Part shown: positions 3,675 through 31,564 of the stretch, in pieces
How the letters are laid out: every line of letters starts with the position of its first letter
Numbering within the stretch: the stretch's first letter is position 1
NCBI RefSeq assembly: GCF_000091665.1
Contig: NC_001732.1
Location: 6,486 to 38,485 of the forward strand
DNA: 32,000 bases
Direction of reading: 5' to 3'
From: Methanocaldococcus jannaschii DSM 2661
GTDB lineage: Archaea; AGJL01; Methanococci; Methanococcales; Methanocaldococcaceae
Program-made: the position numbers and the translations under genes
Notes under the pieces: generated by a model
Told to the model about the DNA's origin: nothing
Databases searched by the model: none
Seen by the model: the letters and a program-made list of their open reading frames with translations, nothing else

Positions 3675-3700
3675 GTGAATTGACTTCAAAGTCAATTCAC
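3675..3700. repeat. Palindrome family copy P1 (GTGAATTGACTT-CA-AAGTCAATTCAC)
   Basis: Perfect 12+12 nt inverted arms around a CA centre, read directly. Confidence 0.95.
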
Positions 3701-3767
3701 AAAAAAGACTCTCCATTTAGAATTACATTATAAAAGTCTCTAAAAATAGTGATATGATAAAATAAAC

Positions 3768-3887
3768 TTATTTAACTTTTACTGTTTTCTTTTGCATGTT
3801 TTTGCTAAGTCGGCAGTTTCTTTATCTATTTCCAAAGCTAAATTCTCTAATATCCTCAAGCAAAGTATTCTGCTGCAGCCCTACTAG
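3768..3887 (-). pseudogene. Internally deleted relic of an archaeal histone gene
   Basis: Aligns by eye to the intact histone gene at 29732-29935 (ttattt...aacttttactgtttt...gtattctgctgcagccctacta). About 24 nt near the 3' end and the whole 5' third are missing. The upstream block ttaaaacctacaaaaatattac is retained at 3896-3932. Confidence 0.6.
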
Positions 3888-4201
3888 CTTATTCATTAAA
3901 ACCTACAAAAATATTACCATTTTTGCATATATGCTGGATAAAAGTTGCTCTATCACTTAAAAGTTGCAGTTTTTTAATTGAAAGTTTTAAAGTTCTGATA
4001 ATAGAAATTCAAACATTAAAAATAGTATGTTGGATAAAACCATATAAAAACTATTTTTCCATTGAAATCACAATTTTTTCATGATACACAAAAGTTTAAA
4101 TACTTTTGTTTTGATAAAATTTTGAAAAAAATATTTATACTCGAAATTTTAAAGAAATAAGTATGTATAATCTCAGTTAAAAATTACTGAGGGTGATAAA
4201 T

Positions 4202-6001
4202 ATGTGTTATAATTTTGAAAATGTTAAAAAAGCTTATGAGGATCAACTTAAAAACTATATAAAAAATAGTTTAATTCCTAACCTCTCCTCACATGCAAAT
4301 AATGAAGTAGTTAAAATTTCAATGAAAAAACTGGCTAACTTGGGTTTTGGATATTTAGTGGATAGTACATTATCAAGTATAACTGGATATTATAAAGTTA
4401 GAGATTGGATTGAAGAATTATTAAAAGAGGAATTACAGAAATCTGGAGAAAATAAATGTTGTAATATAGTATTATGTGATTATCCAGAAGAGTTTGAGAT
4501 TAGCATGAGGGAAATTCCTTATTATGTTAATAAGGTTGTAAAATTTAATGGTGTTATTATTTCAGCATCATATCCTTGTGTTCTTTCTAAAAAACACTTA
4601 TATATATGCCCTAAATGTGGAAGGATAAAAGAAGTTTATTTTAGTGAATTATTTTGGGATGATAAGGTTTTTTGTGAATTTTGTGGAGGAAAGATGGAAT
4701 TTGCAAATGTGATGGATTATGAAAATTTTCAGGAATTAGTAGTCCAAGATTTATCTGATGAGAGTGAGTATTATGGTATTGAAAAAAACCCAATAGTTTG
4801 GTACTGTGGTGCAAAACCATATTATTTTGGACATGTGAAAATTACGGGAATTGTAAGGGAAGTTCCCAGAAGCTCAAAAAGTCGTATTTATGAGTTGATA
4901 GTTCAAGCTATAAATGTTGAAAAATTGGGAGTTGAAAAATCTCTAATAAATTTAACTGAAGAAGATGTTAAAAATATTAAGAAAGTTGCAAAGAGGGGAG
5001 ATATTATTGACATATTGGCTGATATATTGATCCCACCACTCCTCTGTGATGATGCGATTGTTAGAAAAGCCATACTTATACAGCAAATAGCCCCATATTT
5101 AGAGGACATAGGCAAGATTAACATTCTACTAGTAACGGAAGTTGGTATTGACAAGACAGCCATTCTAAAGAGAATTGGGAATATTCCTGGAAATAATTTT
5201 ATAAACATAGCGGCGTTGAAGGAGGAGGAATTAGCCACACCTTATGATAAAAGAAGTAATATACTGGGAAAATTTTATACTGTATGTGGAGGTGTAATTC
5301 CAAGGACTCTTGGAGTATTATGTATTGATGATTTTAACGAGAACAATAAATTAAGTACAAAATTATCTGAAGCTTTTGAGAGGAATGTTCTTACAACTAA
5401 TAAGGGTTCATTTTATTGCGTTCCCGCTGAGTGTAGTTTCTTATGTGCATGCTATCCTAAAACGAAATTTAGAAAGTTTGATCAAAAGAAAAGTATTATA
5501 AAACAGATAGGGATTTCGTCAATTTTATTAAAAAATTTTGATTTAATATTTCCAATTAGGGATATTCCCGACAAGGATAGGGATGAAGAGGTGGCAAAAT
5601 ACATTTTTCTAAAGTATATAAACTCAGATAATGAAGAAATTGAAGGATATGATTATGTATTTGTAGATGTTGGTGGAGAAAAAATAAAAATTGATTTTGA
5701 ATTTTTAAAAAAATATGTTGTTTACTCAAGACAAATAACTCCAAAAATAACTGATGAAGTCATAGAAAAAATTTCAAACTGGTATGATGAAATGAGGAAA
5801 AATCATTATATCACTGCAAAACAATTAAATACTGTTATAAAACTTAGTATAGCAGTAGCAAGGGCAAAATTAAAAGAGTGTGTTGATGAAGATGATGTCA
5901 AAGAGGCAATAGATATAATAATGCACTATTTAAAACAAGTTGTTTATAATCCAAAAAAGGGAATTATTGATGTTATTTTGTTGTATAAAAACAAAACATA
6001 A
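4202..6001 (+). CDS. mcm: MCM-family AAA+ protein with degenerate catalytic motifs
   Basis: GGGTGA lies 5 nt before ATG 4202; the ORF track starts at GTG 4193 inside the RBS. The C4 zinc ribbon is CPKC...CEFC (4607-4684). INILLVTEVGIDKTAILK, GVLCIDDFNE, NVLTTNKGSFYCVPAECSFLCACYP, NFDLIFPIRDIPDKDRDEEVAKYI and ITAKQLNTVIKLSIAVARAKL are colinear with the MCM core. Confidence 0.8.
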   Translation: MCYNFENVKKAYEDQLKNYIKNSLIPNLSSHANNEVVKISMKKLANLGFGYLVDSTLSSITGYYKVRDWIEELLKEELQKSGENKCCNIVLCDYPEEFEISMREIPYYVNKVVKFNGVIISASYPCVLSKKHLYICPKCGRIKEVYFSELFWDDKVFCEFCGGKMEFANVMDYENFQELVVQDLSDESEYYGIEKNPIVWYCGAKPYYFGHVKITGIVREVPRSSKSRIYELIVQAINVEKLGVEKSLINLTEEDVKNIKKVAKRGDIIDILADILIPPLLCDDAIVRKAILIQQIAPYLEDIGKINILLVTEVGIDKTAILKRIGNIPGNNFINIAALKEEELATPYDKRSNILGKFYTVCGGVIPRTLGVLCIDDFNENNKLSTKLSEAFERNVLTTNKGSFYCVPAECSFLCACYPKTKFRKFDQKKSIIKQIGISSILLKNFDLIFPIRDIPDKDRDEEVAKYIFLKYINSDNEEIEGYDYVFVDVGGEKIKIDFEFLKKYVVYSRQITPKITDEVIEKISNWYDEMRKNHYITAKQLNTVIKLSIAVARAKLKECVDEDDVKEAIDIIMHYLKQVVYNPKKGIIDVILLYKNKT

Positions 6002-6028
6002 AAAGTATAGGAGATAAAAATTGGAGAT

Positions 6029-6067
6029 ACATTTTTAATCTGGAATGCCATAAAGAAAGTATTGTAA
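6029..6067 (+). pseudogene. Relic of the 3' end of an 'archaeal ATPase' paralogue
   Basis: Translates TFLIWNAIKKVL*, compared with the ends of the intact paralogues ([24 protein letters not shown]...). It is followed by a stretch resembling the vapC 3' end (ttcttttcaaatcaaaatt). Confidence 0.5.
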
Positions 6068-6215
6068 ATTAACAATGCTCCAGCCTCTTTATTCTTTTCA
6101 AATCAAAATTATAACATTCTAAAGCTTTATTATATTCTTTAAACAGAGACAAAGAAGTCATCTAATTTGTATAATAATCCAGTATCAAGGGAATTTTTAT
6201 TGATTTAGAGTTGGT

Positions 6216-7454
6216 CTATTTGAGTACTTTTAATATTGTCTTTTGTTCTTCGTTAGTAATGTTTTCTAAAATCTTTTTTATCAATTCTTTTTCTTCATTT
6301 TCAACTTCAAAATACATATTACTAAGAATATATACAAAATCTTCTAAGAGTTTTGAATTTTTTTGGCTAATTTTGTATATAGATTTTAGAATAATATCTC
6401 TATGTATATGAATGTTTAGTAAATCGTGTAAAAAAGAAATATCATTGTAAGCTAACACGTAATTGCATATTACATTTATAAGTTGGTTGTACATTGTTTT
6501 TGAAATTCTCCCACTGTTTAAAAGATTTATTACTATATTTTTAATAGTCCATGATGGATGATCTATAAAAAAACTTAAAGCTTTGGCTTTGATACTAAAA
6601 CTATCATCATATATCATTTTTGCAATTTTTAGCTGTATAAGTTCTTTAGATTCTTTGTCAATATCCTGCAAACTAAGATATTTTCTAGCAAGTTCAATAT
6701 ATACAATTTTTGCTTCAAAATTATAGCCTAAGTCAATATTATTACTTTTTTGAAGAATGTCTAAATTATACTCTTCTCGTAAAGTTTTTGTAGAAATATT
6801 GTTTTTTAGGCAAATATTACAGATTGTGTTAAGAATTTCTAGTGATAATACTTTAAAACGTTCACGTGTTGCAAAAGTGTTACAAAACTTTTTGTATTCC
6901 TCTAAACGATAATATTCATTAATTAATAACTCTAGGTGCTCTTTTTCTGCAAAGCTTGTAAATACTCTCAATATTAGAATCCTATATGTTAAATCTTTTA
7001 AAACATCAACTTCAAAAATCTCTTCATTATCAATTTTTAGATATTGTGATGTAATTATTTTAATTATTTTCTTTATGGAATATTTTCTTAGTTCTACATC
7101 CTTTTCTATAATTCTCCTAAGCTCTAGCATTGCTTGAACTTTAAGACCTCTATGGGCATATTTTAAAAACTTGAATAATGCATCTACTTTCTTTTCTGAG
7201 TTTTCTTTTAGTAATATAAGTCCTAAAATAACTCGTTGTATTTCCACACCATACTTATGCACATAATGACTGTTAGGATGAGTTTTAGATCTAATTATTG
7301 TCCTATGTGGTTTTATAAATTCTATAAAATCATCATATATTTTATCTGGAATAAAGATACTCTCCTTCAATAAAACTCTAAAAATTTGACGAGAATCAAT
7401 GCCAAGTTTAGATTTTTTGAGCTGGGCTATAACCCCATCATAATCTAACTTCAC
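6216..7454 (-). CDS. Hypothetical protein, 412 aa, predicted helical, no motif recognised
   Basis: Long ORF with a GTG start preceded by GGTGGG. Convergent with the MCM-like gene. Confidence 0.6.
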   Translation of the reverse strand: MKLDYDGVIAQLKKSKLGIDSRQIFRVLLKESIFIPDKIYDDFIEFIKPHRTIIRSKTHPNSHYVHKYGVEIQRVILGLILLKENSEKKVDALFKFLKYAHRGLKVQAMLELRRIIEKDVELRKYSIKKIIKIITSQYLKIDNEEIFEVDVLKDLTYRILILRVFTSFAEKEHLELLINEYYRLEEYKKFCNTFATRERFKVLSLEILNTICNICLKNNISTKTLREEYNLDILQKSNNIDLGYNFEAKIVYIELARKYLSLQDIDKESKELIQLKIAKMIYDDSFSIKAKALSFFIDHPSWTIKNIVINLLNSGRISKTMYNQLINVICNYVLAYNDISFLHDLLNIHIHRDIILKSIYKISQKNSKLLEDFVYILSNMYFEVENEEKELIKKILENITNEEQKTILKVLK

Positions 7455-7840
7455 AATCCCACCATAAGTAGTTCCAACTTATAGTGATTTATTAGTTTAT
7501 TTTACGAAGAATATCGAACTTAATATAAATGAACGAAACTCTCCCCTCCCATAAAGAACGTTTAAAACCTTTCATTTATCATCAACAATCGTTATTTAAA
7601 TCTACTATTATTTAGAAAATCAGTTAGAGGATACTTTTAATATTCCATTCAAACATTGAAAATAATCATTTCAAACAATTCTCCCATTTATGGCTGCTAT
7701 TACAAGCCCATATTTTAATATTCTGCTAACAATATTATTGATAAAGTTAAACTGTATCTCAAAAAACTAATGGTAAAATTTGAAAATAAAGATACAAACT
7801 TTTAAATAATTTTGTTTTATAATTTTTAATTGGTGGTATT

Positions 7841-8945
7841 ATGAAATTTTTCAACAGGGAGAAAGAGATTAATGAGATACTTCGAATTTTAAATAGAGAG
7901 CCAGACGATATTTATTTTATATATGGACCCTTAAACAGTGGAAAAACTACTTTAATAAATCACATAATAAACAATGAATTAAAAAAATCCAATAAAAAAT
8001 ATGCTGTCTTTTATGTTAATTTCAGAGAGTATGATATTTACATCAATGGATAATTTTGTTGAGGCATTGTTTGAAATAGACGAAAATTCGAAAGAAAAGA
8101 AGATAAAATCATACATAGAGAGTTTTACAAAGGGAGTTAATGATATTATAAACTTATACTATGGGATAAAGATTCCAGAGCCAATATTGGATAAGTTTTT
8201 TGGAGAAAAAGAAAAGGGGGGATTGGTTTTTAAGTTTATTAGAGATTTATTTATGAGTTTGAATAAGAAGGGAGTTCAGCCAGTATTCATTTTAGATGAA
8301 TTGCAGATGATTAAAGATATTGTTATGAATGGAGGAAAGCCATTATTAAAAAGCTTATTCCAATTTTTGGTTTCTTTAACAAAGGAGAGGCACATAGCAC
8401 ATGTTTTTTGCCTAAGTTCAGATAGTTTGTTTATTGAGTATGTTTATAATGCTGGAGAGTTAGAAGGAAGGGCGAAATATCTATTGGTTGATGATTTTGA
8501 TAAAGAAACTTCCTTAAAATTTATGGACTTTTTAGCAGTAGAAGGAAATATTAACTTAACTAATGAAGATAAAGAGTTAATTTATTCTTATGTTGGGGGA
8601 AAGGCAAAGGACATAAAGTATGTTATTGAAGAAAGTAAGTTTAAAGACTTAAGAGAGGTTTTGGACTTTATGTTAAAAGATGAGGTTTCCAAATTGAGAA
8701 AATTATTGGTTAAGATAAAAACTAAAAAGATTGCAGAAGTTGAGTATGAAAATGTTGTTAAAGCATTAAAATTATTTAAAGACAATTATGAAATCAACGA
8801 ATACCTTATGGACGAGAATACAAAAGAATTCTTAATTAAAAGGAATATCTTATTCTTAAACCCCGTAGAGGAGATTTTAAAGCCACAAAGTTATTTAGTT
8901 TGGAACGCAATAAAAAGAGTATTACAAAATATAAACGATTTTTAA
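7841..8945 (+). pseudogene. 'Archaeal ATPase' family P-loop NTPase, frameshifted near 8030-8045
   Basis: ORF 7841..8053 ([14 protein letters not shown]...GPLNSGKTTL...FYVNFRE) and ORF 8001..8945 (...[17 protein letters not shown]...FILDELQ...) together align end to end with the intact neighbour 8962..10059. The frame changes after FYVNFR at the (ag)3 run. Confidence 0.75.
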
Positions 8946-8961
8946 AATTATTGGTGGGATT

Positions 8962-10059
8962 ATGAAATTCTTCAATAGGGAAAAAGAAATTAATGAAATT
9001 CTTTTAATCTTAGAAGAAGAACCAAATAATATTTATTTTATTTATGGTCCTTTAAATAGTGGAAAATCAACCCTAATAAGAGAAGTTATAACTAATAGAT
9101 TAGACAAGTCAAAATACATACCATTTTTTATTGATTTTAGAACGAGAAATATTTTAAACGTTGATAATTTTATTGAATGCTTGTTTGAAGTGGATGAAAA
9201 ATCAAAAATAGACGATTTTAGGGAATATGCCAAATCATTAGCTGATTTGTTGGTTAAAGGTAGTGAAGAGATTAGCAAATACTACTTGGGTATGCCTATT
9301 AAAGTGCCAAAACCATTCTTTGATAGAATTTTTAGTAAAAGAGATAAATCAGCAGATGTCTATCAATATATTGAATATTTATTTGCTAAATTAAATGAGA
9401 AAGGTAAAAAGCCAATTTTAATATTTGATGAATTACAGATGATTAGGGAGATAACTTTAAACGGGAATAGGTTACTATTGTGGAGTTTATTCCAGTTCTT
9501 AGTTGCCTTAACTAAAGTTCAACATCTATGCCATGTTTTCTGCTTAAGTTCTGATAGTTTGTTTATTGAATACATCTACGGAAAAGCTGAATTAAAGGGG
9601 GGAGTTGATTATATCTTAGTTGATGATTTTGATAAGAAAACTGCCTTAAAGTTTATGGATTTTTTAGCCAAACAAAAGAATATTAATCTAACTAATGAGG
9701 ATAAGGAGCTAATTTATTCTTATGTTGGTGGAAAGGCAAAGTATATTTATGATGTTATTGTCAAGTTAAAAGCTGTTAAAGATTTGAAATATATTTTAGA
9801 GACAAAACTTGAAGAGGAGCGGAATCACTTGGAAGAATTATTGGAGAAGGTTGAAGAAGATTATGAAGGCATAAATTATGATGAAGTCTTAGAAGCATTG
9901 AAATTGTTTAAAGATAATTATGAACTTCCAAAAAGTAAGATAAAAAGGAAAATTAGGATATTTTTAATTAAAGAGAATATTTTATTCTTAAATCCACAAA
10001 AAGGAACTTTAAAGCCACAAAGTTATTTGGTTTGGAATGCTATAAAGAGAATGTTGTAA
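8962..10059 (+). CDS. 'Archaeal ATPase' family P-loop NTPase (STAND-like, probable C-terminal winged helix)
   Basis: GGTGGG RBS. Walker [11 protein letters not shown], Walker B ILIFDELQ. Tandem paralogue of 7841-8945 and paralogue of 22690-23709. Confidence 0.85.
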
Positions 10060-10060
10060 A

Positions 10061-10112
10061 TTAAGTTATTTCAATAAAATCTACTTTTTCAAAGTCAAAA
10101 TCAAGGGTAGTG
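10061..10112 (-). pseudogene. Relic of a vapC (PIN) 3' end
   Basis: The minus strand reads ...LDFDFEKVDFIEIT*, compared with the intact VapC C-terminus FDSDFEKVDFIEIIKE* (30663-). It sits in the same convergent position 1 nt after an ATPase stop. Confidence 0.5.
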
Positions 10113-10116
10113 AGTT

Positions 10117-10329
10117 ATGAGCATTCTCATTTCTAATAAACAATTCAATCATGGGTTAAAGGATGAATTTGCTACTAAAAAGGATTTAGAATTGTTAGAA
10201 GAGAGGATTTTGAGATATGTTGATAATAAGTTCAATCAATTGGATAAAAAAATTGATAGGACTTTTTATTTACTTGTCTTCTTTATTATACTGTGGGTAT
10301 CTCGGGAGGCATTTTTTTATTTGATATAA
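10117..10329 (+). CDS. Small coiled-coil protein with C-terminal hydrophobic segment
   Basis: 70-aa ORF with KKDLELLEERILRYVDNKFNQLDKKIDR followed by FYLLVFFIILWV. It starts at the breakpoint of the vapC relic. Confidence 0.45.
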   Translation: MSILISNKQFNHGLKDEFATKKDLELLEERILRYVDNKFNQLDKKIDRTFYLLVFFIILWVSREAFFYLI

Positions 10330-10330
10330 T

Positions 10331-10415
10331 CCGAACGCCTCCCTCATCGACACCCGCTCCCCTTTACGGGGACAGACCCCCTACTGCCCCGATAGGGACA
10401 GCTAGGAAGTAGCCT
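10331..10415. ncRNA. GC-rich island with two tandem CCCC...GGGGACAG hairpins; candidate structured RNA or 3' element
   Basis: ccgaacgcctccctcatcgacacccgctcccctttacggggacagaccccctactgccccgatagggacagctaggaagtagcc stands out against AT-rich flanks. The hairpins are tcccc-tttac-gggga and ctgcccc-gata-gggacag. Confidence 0.25.
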
Positions 10416-10445
10416 TAAACTTTAATAATACTTATTATTGATAAA

Positions 10446-10754
10446 GTATTATACGTTCATACATATAAAAAATGTGAGAAAAATGAGAAAATAAAATATG
10501 TAATTTAAATTGTTAAGATTTAATAGTTTAAACGTGTGAAAAATGCTTGTTTTTAGAACATTGTATAATGTATTATGTAAATTATCTTTGGATATAATTA
10601 AAAATGTAAGAAAACCATTGAGATTTGGTGTAAAAGAGGGATAGATTGATTATATTGAAAAAAGTTTATGTTGTAAAGTGTATATTCATAATTGGTTTTT
10701 ACTAATGGACAAAATTATACAGTTTAAAATTTAAGTTTATAAATTAGTATTATT
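10446..10754 (+). repeat. Left copy of ~309-bp direct repeat
   Basis: The ends align nearly perfectly with 12770-13078 (gttcatacatataaaaaa..gagaaaaatgagaaaataaaa..atgtaatttaaatt ... aaaaccattgagattt..gtgtaaaag...agattgattatatt..aaaaagtttatgtt..taaagtgta...acaaaattatacagtttaaaatttaagtttataaattagtattatt). The centre is diverged. Confidence 0.85.
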
Positions 10755-10829
10755 CTCTTTTAGAATTTCTGCTATATGTTTAAAGCAGTTTTTCAATATT
10801 TATAATATAATTAAATCGTATGTTTGAAG

Positions 10830-10851
10830 TGGACTTTAGCCCCAAAGTCCA
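10830..10851. repeat. Hairpin tggacttt-agcccc-aaagtcca, related to the GACTT..AAGTC core of the palindrome family
   Basis: 8-bp perfect arms read directly. Confidence 0.7.
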
Positions 10852-10894
10852 ACAATGGTTAAAAATTTTCGGACACCATGCCAAAACATAGAGC

Positions 10895-10987
10895 AGATGC
10901 CACTGCAGTATATACAATATTATAATATTATATTATCAATGGCATACAGTGGCATCTCCAGAGAAGTGTAAATCCAATATGCCACTG
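10895..10987. promoter_or_regulatory. Origin-like element: AGATGCCACTG / CAGTGGCATCT inverted repeat around a 41-nt almost pure A/T spacer, plus a third ATGCCACTG
   Basis: AGATGCCACTG lies at 10895-10905 and its exact complement at 10947-10957. The spacer is cagtatatacaatattataatattatattatcaatggcata. ATGCCACTG recurs at 10979-10987. Confidence 0.4.
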
Positions 10988-12324: not shown

Positions 12325-12364
12325 GGGAGGTTGCCACACTTTTTAAAAAGTGTGGCAACCTCCC
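12325..12364. repeat. Perfect 40-nt palindrome GGGAGGTTGCCACACTTTTT|AAAAAGTGTGGCAACCTCCC
   Basis: Checked base by base: 20+20 nt with no mismatch. It lies 42 nt after the wHTH frame stop. Confidence 0.95.
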
Positions 12365-12651: not shown

Positions 12652-12687
12652 GAGGAACAGCCAATTTTTAAAAATTGGCTGTTCCTC
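12652..12687. repeat. Perfect 36-nt palindrome GAGGAACAGCCAATTTTT|AAAAATTGGCTGTTCCTC
   Basis: Checked base by base: 18+18 nt with no mismatch. It shares the TTTTTAAAAA centre with the 12325 palindrome. Confidence 0.95.
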
Positions 12688-12769
12688 CAACACCATAAAA
12701 ATGCAGACAACAAACCAAAAACCCATTAAGCAACATACTGAGATTGAATTATTACAACCTATAAAAATA

Positions 12770-13078
12770 GTGTTATATGTTCATACATATAAAAAACATG
12801 AGAAAAATGAGAAAATAAAAGATGTAATTTAAATTATTGTAATTTTTCTATTTTTGTGAGTAAATTGTGTTTAGTTTAAGAAGTATTCCCCACTTATTAT
12901 GTAAGTGGATTATTTACTCCACTAAAAATGTAATAAAACCATTGAGATTTAGTGTAAAAGATGAATAGATTGATTATATTAAAAAAAGTTTATGTTATAA
13001 AGTGTACCTTGATAATCAGTTTTCACCAATAGACAAAATTATACAGTTTAAAATTTAAGTTTATAAATTAGTATTATT
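12770..13078 (+). repeat. Right copy of ~309-bp direct repeat
   Basis: See 10446-10754. Confidence 0.85.
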
Positions 13079-13349: not shown

Positions 13350-13351
13350 AT

Positions 13352-13375
13352 TGAATTGACTTTGAAGTCAATTCA
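13352..13375. repeat. Palindrome family copy P2 (TG centre, i.e. P1 in opposite orientation)
   Basis: tgaattgactt-tg-aagtcaattca, with perfect 11-bp arms. Confidence 0.95.
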
Positions 13376-13429: not shown

Positions 13430-13633
13430 TTATTTCTTCAAAGCTAGTTTTACGTCTTCGACTTTTACTGTTTTTCTCTTTGCCATGTTTTGCCAAGTCA
13501 ACAGCTTCTTTAGCTATTTCCAAAGCTAAATCTTCTATAGCCTCAGCAAAGTATTCCGCTGCAGCCCTACTAACTCTCTCAGCCCCATCCTTTTTTAATA
13601 TCCTTACAAACGGTGCAACTGAAGCTCAGCCAT
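13430..13633 (-). pseudogene. Archaeal histone gene with two compensating frameshifts (-1 near codon 5, +1 near codon 50)
   Basis: It has the same 204-nt length as the intact histone gene (29732-29935) and keeps RBS, ATG and TAA. My alignment shows actgaagctc versus actggaagctc (1 nt lost) and 67 versus 66 nt between ctttgc and gtattc (1 nt gained). The central 45 codons ([43 protein letters not shown]) are out of frame with both ends. Confidence 0.8.
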
Positions 13634-13699
13634 AACACCACCCAAAAAAACTTATACTCAAAAATTATCAATTAAAACCTACAAAAATATTACTATTTT

Positions 13700-21405: not shown

Positions 21406-21429
21406 TGAATTGACTTTAAAGTCCATTCA
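21406..21429. repeat. Palindrome family copy P3 (TA centre, one arm mismatch)
   Basis: tgaattgactt-ta-aagtccattca, ending 154 nt upstream of the parA start. Confidence 0.85.
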
Positions 21430-21583
21430 TCCCTTAACATTCCTTATAAAGAAATACTCTATAAAAGTTTATTATTACATTATTGCATTAAACAGTTAAA
21501 CATATAACCAATAATTTAAATATGAAATAATGTAATGCCATAATACTGTAATAAAATAATAGAATATCTAATGGTGAGAGTTT

Positions 21584-22363
21584 ATGGTTGTAATTTCAAT
21601 TGCAAATCAAAAAGGGGGTGTTGGAAAAACAACAATAGCATTAAACCTATCATTTACACTTGCAGAAAAGGGGTATGATACTTTAGTAATCGATTTAGAC
21701 CCACAATTCAACTTATCCTTTGGAATTTTGGGAATGAAATTATTAGATTATGCTGATAAAAATATTGGAATACTATTATCAAAAAATTCTGTTAAGAAGA
21801 AAGAAATTGAAGAGTCTATTATAAAAATTAATGATAAGTTAGATTTAATCCCCTCCCACTTGCAGCTTTCTGCTGTAGAAAAAATGTTAGTTAATGCTTA
21901 TGCAAGGGAAATGAAGTTGAAAAATATCATTAACCAAATCAAAGAAAATTATGACTACATAATAATTGATAATGCCCCATCATTAGGACTATTTTTAATA
22001 AATTCATTAGTGGCATCTGATTATATTATCATCCCATGTGAGCCAAGTTATTTTAGTATTGCAGGAGTTCAACTAATGTTAGATACTGTTGAGGAAATAA
22101 AAGAATCAAACTTGAATCCAAAACTTAAAGTTTTAGGGTTTATTTTCAACAAGTACTCTAAACAATCAAAAATTCCACAAAAGAGGTTAGAACAGTTAAA
22201 ACAACTCTATCCTAACATTCCAGTAATTGGAGTAATTCCAAGAACTATTACTGTTGAAAAGGCAGAACGTGAGGGAAAACCTGTGTTTAAATTTGATGCT
22301 AATAATCCTGCAAGTGTTGCATTCTCAGAACTTGCTGAGTGGGTGATAGAAAATGTCAAATGA
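21584..22363 (+). CDS. parA: ParA/Soj/MinD-family partition ATPase
   Basis: GGTGAG RBS. Deviant Walker A NQKGGVGKTT (21605-21634), DLDPQ, and IIIDNAP Walker B. Confidence 0.92.
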   Translation: MVVISIANQKGGVGKTTIALNLSFTLAEKGYDTLVIDLDPQFNLSFGILGMKLLDYADKNIGILLSKNSVKKKEIEESIIKINDKLDLIPSHLQLSAVEKMLVNAYAREMKLKNIINQIKENYDYIIIDNAPSLGLFLINSLVASDYIIIPCEPSYFSIAGVQLMLDTVEEIKESNLNPKLKVLGFIFNKYSKQSKIPQKRLEQLKQLYPNIPVIGVIPRTITVEKAEREGKPVFKFDANNPASVAFSELAEWVIENVK

Positions 22364-23709: not shown

Positions 23710-24036
23710 AATTTCACCCAAATAAACTCTTTATTTTAATTAAAAATATTATTTTAGAGTATTTAAAAGTTGAACATGCCATATTACATTAGCTGTGAAT
23801 CTAAAGTTGAAAATTAACCTTTACTGTCTTTATGACATCATAACCACACTACCTATTGTATTATTTTATTACATCATAATTTAATTGCATTATAACATAA
23901 TAACATTATTCCATAATTCTTTATACAATAATTATTTAACAATGGCATTAAACAATTACTTAAAAATTTAAATACACAAAACAACATTGCAATATTGCAA
24001 TAATAAAATAATTCATTAACTAAAAATAATAAAGTG

Positions 24037-24062
24037 GTGAATTGACTTTGAAGTCAATTCAC
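24037..24062. repeat. Palindrome family copy P4 (TG centre, full 12+12)
   Basis: gtgaattgactt-tg-aagtcaattcac, 20 nt downstream of the stop of the 162-aa gene. Confidence 0.95.
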
Positions 24063-24082: not shown

Positions 24083-24571
24083 CTAAAGCTTCTCCAAATC
24101 CAATGGAACATATTTTACAATATAAGCCTTATTTACAATAACAACATCTCCCTTTCCAACATCAACCAAGACAGTATAAGGGTCCTTACAACAGCATTTG
24201 CCCTCCAACACTTCACCATTAGCCAAATGCAACCTAACCTTATGATTATGGCAAAAGAATAAAACATAATCTTTTCTCTCTTGAGTACTAACACACGTTT
24301 CCCTAACCCTCTTTGGCTGCTTTTTACCTTTGCCCTGTTTTTTCTGGCCAGTTTGTTTTTTACCATTATTTTTAGATTTTTGACTTTCCAACTTTTTAAG
24401 CTCTTTTTCAATCTCTTCTAAATGCTTACTTTTAACGTGTTTCCTAACAACCTTAGCATCAGCATTAGTATAATCACAAAAAGGACATTTATAAAAACCA
24501 ATATCATTCTTTTGAAGCTCTAACTTCTCAACATACTCATCAACATTCACAATCTCACCTAGAATATCCAA
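24083..24571 (-). CDS. C2H2 zinc finger, basic linker and Hfq/Sm-like domain protein
   Basis: YKCPFCDYTNADAKVVRKHVKSKH is C-X2-C-X12-H-X4-H. The linker is K/G/Q-rich (KSKNNGKKQTGQKKQGKGKKQPKR). VRLHLANGEVLEGKCCCKDPYTVLVDVGKGDVVIVNKAYIVKYVP parallels the Hfq Sm1/Sm2 pattern (V.L.L.NG..L.G.....D.F.VLL......V.YKHAIS..VP). The start is uncertain: TTG 24571 or GTG 24550. Confidence 0.6.
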   Translation of the reverse strand: MDILGEIVNVDEYVEKLELQKNDIGFYKCPFCDYTNADAKVVRKHVKSKHLEEIEKELKKLESQKSKNNGKKQTGQKKQGKGKKQPKRVRETCVSTQERKDYVLFFCHNHKVRLHLANGEVLEGKCCCKDPYTVLVDVGKGDVVIVNKAYIVKYVPLDLEKL

Positions 24572-25045
24572 AATTTGAAAAATAGCAAAATGTCAAATGC
24601 AATGTATTCCCCCATACTATCAATATGTAAAGTAATCCATATTTAAAACTATCCTAAGCCTAGTAACAAACACAAAGAATGCAAATAAAAAGAAAAGATG
24701 AAAAATGTGACATTTAGCACATTAAATGCCATTGTTATAAAATAAACAAAGACAAAACTTTCCTCCCTAGCAATTTTGAGTTAAGAGAGACAACCAACCT
24801 GCAGCAATTTTTGAGAATTTTAGTAAAGGGAATTATCCCTTACATAATACACGCAAAAAGTGCAATCTTGTTGCGGAAATTCATTCTTACTTTTAAATTT
24901 ATTATCTATTTGTTTGCATAAGATTTAAATGTATTGTTATATCTATTAATTTTTGCTAATGTTTATTAATAAAATATTTAAATATATTGATTAATATTAT
25001 AAAACTCTTAAAATTCATCATCACTTTTTTGTATTGTTGTTTTAA

Positions 25046-28000
25046 TTAGGTAATCCGCAGCAATCCAGGTTTTGGCTCGTATATTACCCCCAACTTTTTC
25101 AACTTTTCTAATGCTTTATAGAATACTTCTTCAACAAACTTCAATTTTTCAACAATTAGTTCATATAATTCCATTTCTAATATTTCCCCTCCATTTTCTT
25201 CAATTTTCTTTTCAATAACTTTTTCACACTTTTCAACACTGTTAGAGTTAATATTTTGTTTTATAATCTCATATAGCGTTTTAAACTCTTTGTTAAGTTC
25301 TTTTATTTCAACTACTGCATTTTCCCCCAGTTTTTTTACTCCTCTAATTACACAATTAAATATTGCTCTTATCAATCTTCTAACTTCATCCAAGGTTAGA
25401 GTGAATCCACATTCTTCTTTTATAACCTCTATTAATTCTCTAATTTTGAATTTTTGTCTTTCAATGGCAAAATCTCTAACTTTTATTAACACTTTTGCAA
25501 CTAATGACCTTAACCCTAACTTTCTCCTATCTAATCTCTCATCATCTTCTCCTACTACAATATTCCATACTGCTCTTATAATCCTTTGAATCTTACCCCA
25601 TTTTGATGGAGGGCATAAGAATGTTTTTAGAATTAGCTCTTCTATAATTCTTGCCAATGTTGAGAGTTTATCCTTATGTTCCTCTAACAATTTCAAATCA
25701 ATATGGTAAATTTTCTTTGTTTTTCTATCTTCATTTTCATTAATTTCTTTAACAATTTTCTTATACTCGTTAATTTCTTCTAAGCATTTTTTAATAGTAT
25801 TTTCATCTAAGTTCGATTTTTTATCATCATCTTTTCCTTTATTCAACATTAGGTTATACACTTCTATAACTTCTGGAATATTATAAACATCTTTTAACAC
25901 GTTTATACTCCTGTTAATCCTTTTTGAGTGTTTTTTTATTAATTGTGGAGTGTATTCATCCCTACAATCTTTAAATTTCTTATAATTATTATATTCCAAG
26001 GCATTTTTGATTTCATTCACTCCATATTCTTTAAATGCAATAATTATATGTTTTGCACTAACTTTTTCAAGATATTCGAGATAATTATATTTTAAGAACT
26101 TATCCAGCTTACTTTCTTTTAACTCTTTTATTGTTTTAATTGCAAACTCATAGCCAGTAGTTTTTTCTAAATACTCTTTTAGTAATTTATAATCTCTTGT
26201 AATATGGGCCTCTAATAGACTATTATAAATGTGTGCTATTTCATCTTCATCTAAAACCCAATCCTTCTTTTCCTCATCATAATATATTGCATTTTGAATT
26301 TGAGAAATCAACACTTTCTTATAATTTTTATCCAATTCTTTTAAAACTTCAATATCCGTTTCTAAATACTCTTTTAATAGTTTATAATTTTCCTTAAACA
26401 TTTCAATCATTGCATTATAATCAATAATCATTGGCTCTTCTTCTCTTTCTTTAAAAGGTGCTGTGACAATTAACTCTCCCCCACCATTCCTACATCTGGC
26501 AATAAACTGTCTAATGGTGGTAGCACTCTTACAATACAATGCCCATACCAAATCAACATGATTTTTAATATTAACTCCCTCAGAAATGACTCTTGTGGCT
26601 AAAATTAACCCCTCTTCTGGTACTTTTTCTTCATTAATAATCATTTTACTTGCCTTGTCAATTCCAACAGTCTCTCTTGTTATAACGTAAATTGGCTTGT
26701 TAAAACCATACAATTCTAAAGTATATTTTATATTCTCAATCATTTTCTTATTATCAACTAAAACTACAGCATTTTTTATCCATCCCTGTCTAAACATTAG
26801 TAGGATGTATTCACAAAACTCTCCAATAATATTTTTTGCAATATGGATAGAACATCTTTCAAATAATTTTTTCTCATCTTTAAATTCCACTTCTATAACT
26901 GGATAGTTATTCAAATTAATTAACTCTGGAGTTGCAGTTAGTAAGACACAACCTCCAGCCCTGTCTATACACTTTTTTACCCCTGTTATTGCCCTTTTTC
27001 TAAACTCTTTTTGGATTACTAAATCATGTGCTTCATCTATTGCCAATAGAATATCCTCTTCATTAGCAACTTGAATTTTCTCCCCTTTATAAGTGTCATA
27101 ACATAAATCATTAAGCATATTTTCAACTTGGTCGTAGGTCCCAATGGTCAAATAATGAATAGTATTCTTATCCAATTTTTTCCCATCTTCATAATACATT
27201 GGAACTACTACTCCATCAGCGTGTAATCCTGCCCCTACTTGTAAAACTTGTATTTTATATGGGAATGCCACTGCTATAGCATGTTTTTTAAATACCTCTT
27301 TAATTTCTCTTGTATTTCTTGTTAGAGTATAAGTTTTCCCCCTTCCAGTGTCTGCTTTAAGAAATACTGGAACTCCTTGTTCAATAGATAATTGGTATGC
27401 TTTTATTATAGCCTCTTTTGGTAAGTATCCTTCTGCTTCTATCTTTATTGTTTCTCTATCGAGTAGTTCATTCATTATCTCTCTAACAGTCCTATAAGTG
27501 GATGGCTTTGGATTAATATTGTGTAATTTTAAAAATTCTATTATTTTATCCCTAAATTCTTTAATCATCCATAATCCTGCTAATGCAATAAATCTCATAT
27601 TTGGATCGTGGAAATCTACCATTACTGCATTATATCCCTCATTAATGTAAATAGAACAGTCAGGATTTTTCCCATCATCAAAGAATAAACTCCATAAGTC
27701 TAATCTGGTTCCATTTTTACCATATTTATAATCAATTCCCAAGTAGGAGAGGAGTTTTTCAATCCATCTTTTACCCAATTTTTTAGTTAATTTATCTTGT
27801 ATAGTATATAACCATTTGTAAATTCTTTTATTTATATCTTGCAATATAGTTTTATTAAGATTTGGTTTTTTTATTAATCTATTAATTGTTGTGGTAATGT
27901 TGTTTAATCCTCGCTTATTGTATAATTCTTCTCTTTTTTCATTGAATAATACTTCAAATTCTTTATAATTTTCAATAATTCCAAACTTCTCATACAATAT

Positions 28001-28864
28001 TATTGGAGTTAACAATTTTTCAATATCTTCTTCATCTGTCAACTGGGCTATTGTAACACATGGTCTTGGACTACCATATTTTTCCTTATAATTGTAAGTT
28101 CCTACCAGCCTATCAACTCTTGCCAAATCATACATTGCAATATCTGCCCCTAAATCTTCAGCAATCATTCTTAGTAGTATTAATTCTTCTTCTAAAATAG
28201 GTCTTTCAGGATATAATATGAATCTTAATCCTCCCCCAGTAAATGCCACTTTATGTGGAAGTATATCCTTCTCTACGAATTTTGATAAATATTTAATCAA
28301 TTTTTCCATAATTTCTTCTTCTGTAGGCATTTTGTTTGTCTTCCACTCTTCAACGTCAAAATCAAATGCAATATAACTCCAAGCAGTGGCAGCTCCCGCA
28401 TCCCCTCTTTTTTCCTTTCTTGGGGCAATTCCGACATAAACCCCATCTAATCTTCTTTTCTTTTGTTTTTTAATATACTCATACTGTTTTTTTATTAATT
28501 TTATGATTTCTTCAGTTTTTTCTAAAATATTATCAACGTGTAAATCTGAAATATCTATGAAAAATTGTTTTTTACCCTTAAATTTTCCTAAAAATCTAAT
28601 TTCTAAATACTTAAACTGTTTTACTAATTTTTTCAAAATTTTTTCTAAATGAGTTTCTCCAAGATATACTGAAAATTCTTCTTTATGTTTGACAATCAAA
28701 AATAGCAACTGTGCAATGTGTAATTTTAAATCAGATTCTAAAATATCATCTGAGATATTGTAAATTCCACTAACATTTATTTGATACTTATCAAAAATAG
28801 CTTTTACAGTTTGATCATCCCAATACCGCAAACTTTTTATACTATTAGATAGTATATTATTCAT
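25046..28864 (-). CDS. Archaeo-eukaryotic primase (AEP) domain, SF2 DEAH helicase and C-terminal winged helix; candidate plasmid replicase
   Basis: GGTGA lies 8 nt before the ATG. The AEP motifs are SYIAFDFDVEEW, AFTGGGLRF and DLARVDRLVGTYNYK (about nt 28055-28447). The helicase motifs are FLKADTGRGKTY, LLAIDEAHDL, LLTATP, VISEGVNI and QFIARCRNGG (about nt 26465-27397). The C-terminus is ALEKLKKLGVIYEPKPGLLRIT. Confidence 0.7.
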   Translation of the reverse strand: MNNILSNSIKSLRYWDDQTVKAIFDKYQINVSGIYNISDDILESDLKLHIAQLLFLIVKHKEEFSVYLGETHLEKILKKLVKQFKYLEIRFLGKFKGKKQFFIDISDLHVDNILEKTEEIIKLIKKQYEYIKKQKKRRLDGVYVGIAPRKEKRGDAGAATAWSYIAFDFDVEEWKTNKMPTEEEIMEKLIKYLSKFVEKDILPHKVAFTGGGLRFILYPERPILEEELILLRMIAEDLGADIAMYDLARVDRLVGTYNYKEKYGSPRPCVTIAQLTDEEDIEKLLTPIILYEKFGIIENYKEFEVLFNEKREELYNKRGLNNITTTINRLIKKPNLNKTILQDINKRIYKWLYTIQDKLTKKLGKRWIEKLLSYLGIDYKYGKNGTRLDLWSLFFDDGKNPDCSIYINEGYNAVMVDFHDPNMRFIALAGLWMIKEFRDKIIEFLKLHNINPKPSTYRTVREIMNELLDRETIKIEAEGYLPKEAIIKAYQLSIEQGVPVFLKADTGRGKTYTLTRNTREIKEVFKKHAIAVAFPYKIQVLQVGAGLHADGVVVPMYYEDGKKLDKNTIHYLTIGTYDQVENMLNDLCYDTYKGEKIQVANEEDILLAIDEAHDLVIQKEFRKRAITGVKKCIDRAGGCVLLTATPELINLNNYPVIEVEFKDEKKLFERCSIHIAKNIIGEFCEYILLMFRQGWIKNAVVLVDNKKMIENIKYTLELYGFNKPIYVITRETVGIDKASKMIINEEKVPEEGLILATRVISEGVNIKNHVDLVWALYCKSATTIRQFIARCRNGGGELIVTAPFKEREEEPMIIDYNAMIEMFKENYKLLKEYLETDIEVLKELDKNYKKVLISQIQNAIYYDEEKKDWVLDEDEIAHIYNSLLEAHITRDYKLLKEYLEKTTGYEFAIKTIKELKESKLDKFLKYNYLEYLEKVSAKHIIIAFKEYGVNEIKNALEYNNYKKFKDCRDEYTPQLIKKHSKRINRSINVLKDVYNIPEVIEVYNLMLNKGKDDDKKSNLDENTIKKCLEEINEYKKIVKEINENEDRKTKKIYHIDLKLLEEHKDKLSTLARIIEELILKTFLCPPSKWGKIQRIIRAVWNIVVGEDDERLDRRKLGLRSLVAKVLIKVRDFAIERQKFKIRELIEVIKEECGFTLTLDEVRRLIRAIFNCVIRGVKKLGENAVVEIKELNKEFKTLYEIIKQNINSNSVEKCEKVIEKKIEENGGEILEMELYELIVEKLKFVEEVFYKALEKLKKLGVIYEPKPGLLRIT

Positions 28865-29077
28865 TGGTCACTCACCTTACTGTGGGTAGTATATATTCAT
28901 TGGTCACATCTCTTGGTCATACACCTCGACCATGCCTACACTAAATACTCCCTAATGTTGCAATACCTTAACATATAATGCAATACAATACTGAGCTCTT
29001 TTGATACAATCTATGTAATTTAAAGAGTATAAGAAACATTTTCAGGGGGCGACCATTTCTATATTATTTTTTGAAGT

Positions 29078-29246
29078 ATATAAACTTTTAGTTATTTTTT
29101 GAATTTGTATATTTGGATTTATATCATATAACTTTTTCTGAAAATTTTTCCTGACATATCTATTAGGTAGTTAGTATATATATATTTTTCGGATTTTTGC
29201 ATGTTTTTACACTTTATCTTCTAATTTTATAACTAAAAGTTTATAT
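29078..29246. repeat. 18-bp perfect inverted repeat pair (29078-29095 and 29229-29246) in the AT-rich gap next to the replicase gene
   Basis: ATATAAACTTTTAGTTAT and ATAACTAAAAGTTTATAT are exact reverse complements, separated by 133 nt. Confidence 0.9.
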
Positions 29247-29624
29247 TTTTCAAATAAAAAGGTTTATATACTATGAAATCATAGTATTGCTTGATTACAA
29301 AATTATTTTTTTGATAATAATGCCTATTTTTTCTTAATTCGTTGTGTGGTTGATAAAATTGTTAGCAGCATTTATGTTTTATATTTTAAAAAGAAAAGCA
29401 TTAAATCTACATTTATTGTTATTATCTTATTTTTTGTGTCTTTTTTATCTTCTGTAAACTCTTATAAATCTCTTATATAGTATTATAATTATTCTATAAA
29501 AATATGTGGATTAAGTTGGGTAAGAAAAATGTGCGAAATAGGGGCTAAAATAATATTAAAACATTAATGTCTTTTGTCTAGTGTTACATTTTTAGTTACG
29601 TCTTTAACCACTTTTATTAGTACA

Positions 29625-29650
29625 GTGAATTGGCGTTGAATTCAATTTAC
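29625..29650. repeat. Palindrome family copy P5 (degenerate)
   Basis: gtgaattggcgttgaattcaatttac, in the same position relative to the histone gene as P1 and P2. Confidence 0.6.
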
Positions 29651-29731
29651 AAAAGAGACATTCTATATATATAATTTACTTATAATTATATTCAAAAATA
29701 GTGTTATAATAAACAAATGGATAAAATGGGC

Positions 29732-29935
29732 TTATTTCTTTAAAGCTAATTTTATATCTTCAACTTTTACTGTTTTTCTCTTTGCGTGCTTAGCTAAATC
29801 AACTGCTTCCTTAGCAATTTCTAATGCAATTTCTTCAAATGCCTCTGCTAAGTATTCTGCTGCAGCCCTACTAACTCTTTCAGCTCCAACTTTTTTCAAG
29901 ATTCTCTCAAATGGTGCAACTGGAAGCTCAGTCAC
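29732..29935 (-). CDS. Archaeal histone (HMf family)
   Basis: [67 protein letters not shown] is a 67-aa single histone fold. GTG start after GAGGTAG. Confidence 0.92.
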
Positions 29936-30199
29936 AACACTACCTCTTTGTATATGTAGAGTGTAGAAGCTCTAATAACCTACAAAGTGGGAGTTCAAAT
30001 TTGCTAAACTTTAAGCTCCCTTAATGGAAACTCGAAACTAAAATAAGTAAAACCATAATACAATAATACAATCATTCAATAATATCATAAAATCATAATT
30101 TAGTAATGCAATAATCCAATAACTCCACAATAACATAATAAAATAACTTTGAGTTTCCACTAAAAGAAATTCAAAGGTGGGGTTAATAAATTTCTTATA

Positions 30200-30223
30200 T
30201 GAATTGACTTCAAAGTCAATTCA
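30200..30223. repeat. Palindrome family copy P6 (CA centre)
   Basis: tgaattgactt-ca-aagtcaattca followed by caaaaaaga, as in P1. Confidence 0.95.
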
Positions 30224-30550
30224 CAAAAAAGAAATGTCACCCATCACATCATAAACACATCCACCGACATACTAATCAAAATTTAATTATTGAATTATTA
30301 AATTAAACAATAACATAATAACATAATTATTACATTATGTTATTATTTAAAATAACCATAAAACTCCAGATAGTATTATTGGGTCCTCGTAAAAATATAG
30401 TCGTTCAATTGAACCATAATATTGCTAATATTGGTCATTCTACTGAACCAATATATAAATGTTTTTTATCATTAGTTAGGGTTCAAATTGGCAACTTCAC
30501 CTTATTTATATAGTATTTCATGAAAATGTAGTAATTTTCAAACTACTATT

Positions 30551-30574
30551 TGAATTAACTTTAAAATCAGTTAA
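30551..30574. repeat. Palindrome family copy P8 (degenerate), at the breakpoint of the ATPase relic
   Basis: tgaattaactttaaaatcagttaa has 4 differences from the consensus. Confidence 0.45.
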
Positions 30575-30661
30575 AAGAAATATTTTATTCTTAATCCTAT
30601 TGAGGGAACTTTAAAACCACAAAGTTATTTGGTTTGGAATGCAATAAAAAGAGTACTGTAA
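30575..30661 (+). pseudogene. Relic of the last ~28 codons of an 'archaeal ATPase' paralogue
   Basis: Reads [27 protein letters not shown], nearly identical to the end of 8962..10059 ([27 protein letters not shown]). No upstream part is present. Confidence 0.75.
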
Positions 30662-30662
30662 A

Positions 30663-31124
30663 TTATTCTTTAATTATCTCAATAAAATCTACTTTTTCAA
30701 AGTCAGAATCAAAGGTAGCTAATTTATTTATCCTATAATATTTACAAGTGGCTATTATGATTGCATCGTTTGTTAAAAGGTTGTATTTTTTACCTATTTC
30801 AGGAGCTAATTTTAAAACTTCCCAATTTGTATCTAATATTTTTAAGTAGTTCATTTTAATCATTTTATCAATTTTTTCTCTAACTTCTTCATATACCCAA
30901 GAATATCTATTTAAATTCTTTTTTAAATCATAAACTCCTCTAATTCCATCTTCTAATGCTATATGAAATGTCACTTTAAACATTGTTTCAGAAAAGACTA
31001 TTGGATTTATGCATAACATAAAACCATCATTTATTAGTTTAGATAATAATTTATGAGCTTTTTCATCTCCAATAAATAATCCAACCATGACTGAAGAATC
31101 AATAAAAACATTAGAAGGACTCAT
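30663..31124 (-). CDS. vapC: PIN-domain ribonuclease toxin VapC
   Basis: The acidic PIN residues sit in VFIDSSV, FSETM, LLTNDAIIIA and ATFDSDF. The gene overlaps the upstream small gene by 14 nt. Confidence 0.85.
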   Translation of the reverse strand: MSPSNVFIDSSVMVGLFIGDEKAHKLLSKLINDGFMLCINPIVFSETMFKVTFHIALEDGIRGVYDLKKNLNRYSWVYEEVREKIDKMIKMNYLKILDTNWEVLKLAPEIGKKYNLLTNDAIIIATCKYYRINKLATFDSDFEKVDFIEIIKE

Positions 31125-31308
31125 AATATGCCTCTTTTAATTTTTTATAATCGATATCTTTACACTTTTTTATTATCATAGATTTTAAAAACTCTTCTAC
31201 ATCATCATTAACAATTTTAATTTTTAATCTCTTTTTACCCTTTATTTTTAATGGTTTTAATGGTTTTAAAACTCCATCTTCGTAAATAACTTCAATAATT
31301 TCTGACAT
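31111..31308 (-). CDS. vapB: VapB-type antitoxin (AF2212/DUF104-like)
   Basis: MSEIIEVIYEDGVLKPLKPLKIKGKKRLKIKI matches the IEAIYENGVLKPLEPL pattern. GGTGAT lies 4 nt before ATG 31308; the track's GTG 31317 lies inside the RBS. Confidence 0.75.
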   Translation of the reverse strand: MSEIIEVIYEDGVLKPLKPLKIKGKKRLKIKIVNDDVEEFLKSMIIKKCKDIDYKKLKEAYYESF

Positions 31309-31540
31309 ATAAATCACCAGAGGCCTTTATTTTTCTATTTTTCTAAGGTAATATTTAAACCTTCTTTCGAAGTGTATATTATTGTTTTTTGAGAATTGAG
31401 AAAAGTTTAATTTGACAGTTTCTTAAATGATAGACAGAGAGTATATGATAATTATATATTTAACTTTTTATTATTTTATACTCTTCGTTTATACTCCCTT
31501 ATCTTGGTTTCTGAACGTGCAGCATTTTTAGGCTGCCACC

Positions 31541-31564
31541 TGAATTGACTTTAAAGTCAATGCA
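31541..31564. repeat. Palindrome family copy P7 (TA centre, one arm mismatch)
   Basis: tgaattgactt-ta-aagtcaatgca. Confidence 0.85.

Follow-up and report, generated by a model that had tools for sequence, protein, structure and literature searches.

What keeps a short palindrome almost unchanged, between genes and in many copies, on an archaeal plasmid whose neighbouring sequences drift? This question is raised by a replicon of Methanocaldococcus jannaschii DSM 2661, almost certainly its large extrachromosomal element (ECE), of which a stretch of 32,000 nucleotides (contig NC_001732.1, positions 6,486 to 38,485 of the forward strand; hereafter the window, whose own positions are used throughout) carries a dispersed family of palindromes of the form (G)TGAATTGACTT-YR-AAGTCAATTCA(C), YR being a pyrimidine followed by a purine. 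Mosaic composition is a striking trait of the plasmids and viruses of hyperthermophilic archaea, yet the sequences at which their modules are exchanged have rarely been defined; here, one exact palindrome of 24-26 bp marks the ends of modules. An earlier note, drawn from the letters of the window alone, described the family and suggested that it consists of parS-like centromere sites or, alternatively, of recombination junctions at the edges of cassettes. Based on comparison with metagenomic relatives of the ECE, the palindrome looks like a conserved "linker" for the reshuffling of modules rather than a partition site. No earlier description of the motif was found in the literature.

When TGAATTGACTT-NN-AAGTCAATTCA was searched with up to three mismatches, the window gave six copies with 0-1 mismatch, against an expectation of 0.00 from 100 dinucleotide shuffles. 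These are exactly the six copies listed in the earlier note, and the family is real. The two copies that it had called degenerate, at 29625-29650 and 30551-30574, are decayed members beyond these six. The copies, and the short extension attached to two of them, are given below, with L-numbers denoting the contigs or loci that were compared.

3676-3699: palindrome without mismatch, centre CA; a G and a C at 3675 and 3700 extend it to a perfect 12+2+12 unit (3675-3700), which lies 3' of a histone relic (3769-3886, minus strand) and 270 nt downstream of a DUF3226 gene.
3700-3708, plus strand: the extension CAAAAAAGA, which together with the palindrome forms a 33-bp exact direct repeat of 30200-30232.
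13352-13375: palindrome without mismatch, centre TG, 55 nt 3' of a frameshifted histone pseudogene.
21406-21429: palindrome with one mismatch, centre TA, in the divergent region between a beta-propeller gene and parA.
24038-24061: palindrome without mismatch, centre TG; with 24037 and 24062 a perfect 12+2+12 unit.
29626-29649: decayed palindrome with four mismatches, 82 nt 3' of the intact histone gene.
30200-30223: palindrome without mismatch, centre CA, with the 9-bp extension to 30232, at the upstream boundary of the histone cassette.
30551-30574: decayed palindrome with four mismatches, 89 nt downstream of a PIN gene.
31541-31564: palindrome with one mismatch, centre TA, 224 nt upstream of an AF2212-like/PIN operon; one flank is orthologous in L167.

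About 71% of the window is coding, yet all eight copies fall in non-coding DNA (P ~5e-5), which bears out their description as intergenic, and they stand at the edges of recognisable gene blocks. The copy at 13352-13375 precedes the ATG of an 81-aa open reading frame (ORF) by 2 nt, as had been noticed before, and the copies at 21406 and 24037 do bracket the block of ParA, its 110-aa partner and an ATPase. The former of these two is placed 39 nt outside the conserved upstream module of par, while the latter (24037-24062) lies 21 nt past the stop of a 162-aa zinc-finger gene (24083-24571) and is a site of cassette insertion in relatives. Three copies had been placed 55-82 nt downstream of three histone genes; these distances hold, but two of the three histones are pseudogenes, as 29732-29935 alone is intact, 13430-13640 is frameshifted and 3769-3886 is a relic. 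The claim that one copy coincides with the breakpoint of a truncated ATPase also stood up, since the decayed copy at 30551-30574 adjoins the 5' breakpoint of a relic of an ATPase_2 3' end (relic 30571-30718, homology starting at 30571/30574). This relic is 84% identical to 9970-10110 and overlaps the 3' end of the PIN gene region. Three more copies are found on the same replicon 2.0-2.7 kb upstream of the window (L052 6233, 6648 and 6955), where they stand between nurA, a 46-aa gene and a 116-aa gene.

Outside the ECE the palindrome has a narrow range. A metagenome scan yielded 112 loci, of which about 20 are AT-rich contigs from vent metagenomes that are 72-96% identical to the ECE and hold the full 24-mer at 0-1 mismatch, often several times, which brings the distinct copies in this lineage to 39. 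At the species level (20-bp core; one genome per species; 185,579 genomes) only 45 single matches turned up, all in unrelated bacteria and with the four outer positions at chance level; no Methanocaldococcus genome was among them, in a scan that did not cover the ECE itself. The palindrome was not found in a 20.7-kb sample of the M. jannaschii chromosome, no relative is present in PLSDB, and IMG/VR gave one unrelated match. Apart from single chance matches to the core in these genomes and in metagenomes, the palindrome is confined to this plasmid lineage.

Within the lineage, the palindrome is conserved well above its surroundings. In 20 comparisons of orthologous copies, which are not fully independent of each other, the 22 arm positions are 96.5% identical (382/396) while the homologous 50-nt flanks are 81.3% identical (973/1197; Fisher p = 3e-16). 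The orthologue of 3675-3700 in L160, for example, has identical arms within flanks that are 88-90% identical. Among all 39 copies, position -1 is a G in 53 of 78 half-sites, from which the unit can be taken as 12+2+12, and no conservation of the flanks extends beyond this position. The centre varies between TA (16 copies), CA (13) and TG (9). Variant copies carry single, uncompensated changes, so that covariation gives no hint of an RNA stem, and both arms retain the same sequence. Around the 25 copies with two called neighbours, genes are arranged convergently in 9 cases, co-directionally in 10 and divergently in 6, with a short distance from stop codon to palindrome (-3 to about 100 nt) and a usually longer one from start codon to palindrome. 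The typical place is thus between transcription units, 0-100 nt past a stop codon, and two copies provide the TGA stop of the 116-aa gene.

The same comparisons place the palindrome at the points where relatives of the ECE have been rearranged. In 11 of the 20 orthologous comparisons, homology is limited to the flank on one side of the palindrome; for the copy at 13352 this is the histone-side flank, which alone is common to L074, L094 and L156. Where synteny with the ECE breaks, the palindrome lies within the break in 15 of 29 cases, in comparison to none of 11 collinear joins. Several joints can be read directly. The left flank of 24038 is joined to the right flank of 13352 in L094, the neighbourhood of 3676 (in L063, its left flank) to the par module in L063 and L131, and the left flank of 30200 to the inverted left flank of 3676 in L089 and L143. 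In L120, L162 and L163 the palindrome stands between the 3' end of a phosphatase gene (16781) and a gene that is 22 kb away in the ECE, and the ECE itself has no palindrome at either of the two loci.

Insertions and deletions follow the same borders. The order nurA-palindrome-46-aa gene-palindrome-116-aa gene in the ECE corresponds to nurA-palindrome-116-aa gene in L097, so that the unit gained or lost, the 46-aa gene and its palindrome, comprises 307 bp. In L167 and L152, a cassette of about 1.1 kb between two palindromes occupies the place of the single ECE copy at 24038. The three histone copies are homologous to each other through their 3' untranslated regions up to the palindrome, where the homology ends. 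No empty site was found, as flanks that are neighbours elsewhere too are always separated by the 24 bp or by a whole cassette, and no indel of the palindrome alone was found. To the nucleotide, the palindrome thus coincides with both the junctions of rearrangements and the indels of cassette plus palindrome. The joints, the indels and the one-sided sharing of flanks in relatives give good support to the earlier alternative, in which the edges of cassettes are junctions of recombination.

One apparent joint has to be set apart from these. The public assembly contig L046 joins the PIN region to the DUF3226 region (3676 to 30200) across the identical 33-bp direct repeat formed by 3676-3708 and 30200-30232. 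De Bruijn assemblies with k=31 break at this repeat (at 3705 and 30203) or join both loci chimerically. L046 was rejected as a recombinant on account of the 33 bp shared at k=31, the breaks at 3705 and 30203 in other runs and the low coverage of its neighbours; it is most likely an assembly chimera rather than a real deletion variant.

The interpretation that we favour, tentatively and at somewhat less than an even chance, is that the palindrome is a conserved recognition element in duplex DNA at the ends of modules, and that it serves ECE-type plasmids as a crossover point for recombination. The 22 arm positions would be held constant by a dimeric protein that reads the double-stranded site, with GTGAATTGACTT as the symmetric half-site and the central YR left free. 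Recombination between copies of the palindrome may then swap, insert, remove or invert modules of ECE-type plasmids. The palindromes are the only exact dispersed repeats of at least 24 bp in the window and each pair of them is both direct and inverted, so that deletions, inversions and swaps could all arise without a dedicated enzyme. Such exchange would be ordinary short-homology recombination, within one plasmid or between co-resident plasmids. Short-homology recombination is the simplest account of the reshuffling, and a dedicated recombinase is less likely. The day-to-day role of the bound protein could be insulation or a roadblock between modules, the organisation of the plasmid, or recombination itself. 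The ends marked in this way are those of replication, partition, histone, toxin-antitoxin and defence modules, and in environmental relatives they are crossover points. As genetic tools for M. jannaschii are few, a natural cassette-insertion site on its own plasmid might also be of use in vector design.

By analogy, the closest precedents would be the recombination motifs of Sulfolobus conjugative plasmids and the linkers between the modules of lambdoid phages. The motifs TAAACTGGGGAGTTTA of the pNOB8/pING family are said to have been described as recombination motifs by Stedman et al. in 2000 and Greve et al. in 2004, and to our knowledge no dedicated enzyme has been demonstrated for them. 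They resemble the palindrome in being short, dyad-symmetric motifs, dispersed in multiple copies over an archaeal plasmid at the borders of variable or rearranged segments. In contrast, the palindrome occurs in a Methanococcales host, is unrelated in sequence, longer (24-26 bp) and perfectly palindromic, and the evidence for it comes from metagenomic relatives while that for the Sulfolobus motifs comes from laboratory plasmid variants. In the modular theory of Botstein, the linkers at module boundaries of lambdoid phages are short conserved crossover points between modules. Exchange of modules among relatives at short conserved sequences is common to both systems, whereas the boundary sequences of lambdoid phages are heterogeneous and one identical family of palindromes stands at every boundary here.

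Several points weigh against this interpretation. No binding protein or recombinase was found for the palindrome. Some copies decay (29626, 30551 and L202 8692), and selection is therefore not uniform; the copy at 29626 is the decayed orthologue of one that is perfect in the relative L115. Conversely, the near-total constancy of 22 positions exceeds what most protein sites need. The breakpoint statistics are inflated because the contigs of relatives were ascertained through the palindrome and several are redundant, and about half of the synteny breaks lack a palindrome, from which it follows that recombination is not restricted to it. Finally, within M. jannaschii the scan extended to the large ECE except for about 17 kb and to the 20.7 kb sampled from the chromosome, and the small ECE lay outside it.

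Alternatively, the palindrome could be the core site of a dedicated site-specific recombinase within an integron- or shufflon-like cassette system, which we regard as unlikely. Each cassette, made up of genes and one palindrome, would leave as a circle and could enter again at any other copy, with the site read either as 12-2-12, in the manner of hix/gix, or as 9-bp arms around a 6-bp TTYRAA overlap, in the manner of a tyrosine-recombinase core. The indels of cassette plus palindrome precisely at single palindromes would fit, as would joints of both the inversion and the deletion type and the 12+2+12 architecture with its G at position -1. Sites of the serine invertases (hix/gix/cix) likewise have 26 bp with two inverted 12-bp half-sites and a 2-bp centre, but they form one inverted pair around a switch, while the palindrome has a variable centre and many dispersed copies and no serine recombinase was found. 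The mixed centres (TA, CA and TG) would moreover block many pairings for a serine or a tyrosine recombinase. No recombinase gene is present in the 41 kb of the ECE examined, and no resolvase catalytic domain was found. The likeness to integron attC sites, among them the homogeneous VCR repeats of Vibrio super-integrons, lies in an imperfect-to-perfect inverted repeat at the 3' end of cassettes, in indels of cassette plus repeat and in homogeneity within a platform. However, attC sites are 57-141 bp long, with R''/L''-L'/R' boxes and extrahelical bases, where the palindrome has 24-26 bp and no bulges. They are also recombined as folded single strands by an adjacent IntI, with an attI, and their cassettes lack promoters and all point one way. 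The palindrome shows none of these traits, and its cassettes are not unidirectional and seemingly have their own promoters.

A candidate for such an enzyme is a small tyrosine recombinase of 225 aa with an HTH_7 partner that is encoded on two palindrome-bearing relatives (L074 and Ga0256838_1000521, the contig of L063/L085), with a 65% identical paralogue on the M. jannaschii chromosome. That ECE-type plasmids have a dedicated cassette-exchange system, with the 26-bp palindrome as the core site of a recombinase that might be this pair, is doubtful, at a chance well below even. If they did, replication, partition, histone, toxin-antitoxin and defence modules would be mobile cassettes, and the system would be an archaeal analogue of the integron that works on duplex DNA. 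Yet the 14.6 kb of L183 encode the integrase but contain no palindrome, and L202 has no good copy within 7 kb of its integrase gene. The tyrosine recombinase of L074 was accordingly rejected as the enzyme of the palindrome, as the two do not co-occur.

The recombinase/HTH_7 operon, with recombinases of 223-229 aa, was seen at L074 4358-5537, L183 3912-5115, L186 10001-11174 and L202 1225-2404, and is kept both on ECE-like plasmids and in the chromosomes of M. jannaschii, M. fervens, Methanothermococcus and Methanotorris. Directly downstream of the chromosomal operon of M. jannaschii lies another palindrome, TTAGACTTTTGCACAAAAGTCCAAC (L186 11258-11285). It is resembled by the hairpin at 10830-10851 of the window (TGGACTTTAGCCCCAAAGTCCAAC) in the common pattern GACTTT...AAAGTCCAAC. 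The earlier note had taken this hairpin for a relative of the dispersed palindromes; it belongs to another family, with only a GACTT/AAGTC core in common and a spacer of 6-8 nt. A second protein was considered as a binder of the palindrome, namely the 116-aa product of the palindrome-bracketed gene upstream of the window (L052 6254-6604), which has a winged-helix-like C-terminus. It was rejected because its Thermococcus homologues have no palindromes around them. These homologues are 63-65% identical and reside on Thermococcus mobile elements (L189, L191), which is evidence of plasmid gene flow between Methanococcales and Thermococcales.

A different explanation is that the palindrome acts in RNA, as a bidirectional hairpin at the 3' ends of mRNAs (in termination, protection from 3'-exonucleases or processing) that each cassette would take with it when copied. 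Of 25 copies, 19 have the 3' end of a gene directed towards them, usually no more than about 100 nt from the stop, and 9 lie between convergent genes. The predicted hairpin has a free energy of -13 kcal/mol at 37 °C, and the copy at 24038 is followed by a T-rich run that a terminator scan flagged, although a scan built for bacteria carries no meaning for an archaeon. At the growth temperature of 85 °C, however, the predicted minimum-energy state is an open chain with an ensemble free energy of -1.1 kcal/mol, while two perfect GC-rich palindromes of the window, 12325-12364 (40 bp) and 12652-12687 (36 bp), are predicted to stay folded (-10.1 and -5.2 kcal/mol). Among 27 cases, a run of at least five T stands after the palindrome in 10 and before it in 8, which amounts to no terminator architecture. 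All copies keep one sequence without compensatory pairs, six stand ahead of genes or between divergent ones (in two lineages, ahead of parA), and Rfam gave no match. The open hairpin at 85 °C and the lack of a consistent T-tract weaken the RNA explanation, which we consider improbable; together with the absence of compensation they agree with the earlier view that a protein site in duplex DNA is to be preferred over an RNA terminator.

The two GC-rich palindromes both lie within a segment of about 2 kb between 310-bp direct repeats (10445-10754 and 12769-13078, 81% identical). The segment 10445-13078 could be an origin, a pair of terminators or an inserted element.

The centromere idea with which the earlier note began does not fare well. 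It would make the palindromes dispersed centromere or operator sites, parS-like or like the operators of KorB, bound by a plasmid protein that links them to ParA and possibly regulates transcription globally. In its support, the replicon encodes ParA and a small partner of 110 aa, a copy of the palindrome lies upstream of parA in two lineages, and the narrow range of the 110-aa protein matches that of the palindrome. The IncP plasmid RK2 carries the KorB operators OB, a 13-bp palindrome in 12 copies, and N15 has dispersed centromere palindromes. The at least 11 dispersed, perfectly conserved palindromes on the ECE, a plasmid of about 58 kb, recall both. The resemblance extends to their number (about a dozen), their perfect conservation and their place between the operons of a ParA-encoding plasmid of about 60 kb. 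Unlike in RK2 and N15, no ParB or KorB homologue is found in the window by Pfam annotation, and the ParA partner is a small ribbon-helix-helix (RHH)-like protein with a repeat array of its own.

The relative L181 speaks against the idea. Its ParA and partner are 82-84% identical to those of the ECE and the predicted DNA-reading strand, KTLRIKN, is the same, yet no palindrome occurs at up to five mismatches in 11.4 kb. The block upstream of parA that is conserved in the ECE, L063 and L181 comprises about 115 bp (21468-21583) with ATTACATTAT/ATAATGTAAT repeats and does not include the palindrome, of which a single copy lies outside, at a variable edge where the adjoining DNA differs in each lineage. 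As L181 has the same operon and the same 115-bp upstream region without the palindrome, the parS interpretation is weakened, and we hold it to be quite unlikely. The regulatory extension fares no better, as TATA-like boxes adjoining the copies are not enriched (15% vs 11%).

The array itself is likely the operator or centromere of the ParA partner, judging by its sequence and position, and is a better candidate than the palindrome; by analogy it has the form expected of a type Ib centromere or operator. The search for the par centromere should therefore move to the ATAATGTAAT array at 21468-21583. The decamer ATAATGTAAT/ATTACATTAT has 35 matches at up to one mismatch where 16 are expected, and it also clusters upstream of an ATPase_2 gene (23868-23909) and at 30303-30350, with another match at 3722-3731. 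The 110-aa partner has only seven close homologues, all within this lineage and at 82-96% identity. It has no match in Pfam or PDB and a low-confidence AlphaFold model (pLDDT 48), and its assignment to the RHH proteins follows from a strand-helix-helix pattern only.

That the palindrome is a selfish or neutral mini-repeat, similar to repetitive extragenic palindromic (REP) sequences or miniature inverted-repeat transposable elements, which colonised intergenic DNA and is linked to rearrangement merely as a dispersed repeat would be, is very doubtful: it is strictly extragenic, palindromic, multi-copy and in part decayed, is not found, just as a later addition would not be, in L181 and L183, two lineages of related plasmids, and one relative has a TnpB element, but no empty site was found, annotated proteins and the flanks of copies gave no target-site duplication, GTAG-type head or Y1/RAYT transposase, and the identity of orthologous copies far exceeds that of their flanks. 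Arms that stay constant while flanks diverge need selection or continuing replacement. REP sequences and the mosaic elements built from them (BIME) are equally extragenic, palindromic and multi-copy and often lie at gene 3' ends; they differ in being imperfect, chromosomal, present in tens to hundreds of copies, headed by a tetranucleotide and linked to RAYT, whereas the palindrome is perfect and restricted to plasmids, with no RAYT seen.

The genes among which the palindromes are dispersed are plasmid-like by Pfam annotation. They include an MCM helicase (4193-6001), three ATPase_2/MJ1010-type ATPases, a 1272-aa helicase and an AbrB-like protein (1046-1255), in addition to ParA (21584-22363) with its 110-aa partner, the histone (29732-29935) and the AF2212-like/PIN pair. 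Contigs that share proteins with the window place herA-nurA and a gene with an MJECL01_C domain upstream of it, and contigs of an M. jannaschii assembly are 100% identical to it; judging by that family name and by the MJECL locus tags, the replicon is the large ECE. Two genes of the window are apparently split. An AAA_15 ATPase extends over two ORFs (1643-2302 and 2333-2677) beside the DUF3226 gene, a pairing that looks like a putative OLD/Gabija-type defence pair. An ATPase_2 gene is divided between 7841-8053 and 8001-8945, with its N-terminal 70 codons in another frame. The TnpB-type gene, which has a Cas12f1-like TNB domain and belongs to the MJ0013 family, is located on the palindrome-bearing contig L063 (2315-3637, corresponding to L202 9919-11241), 1.8 kb from the nearest palindrome.

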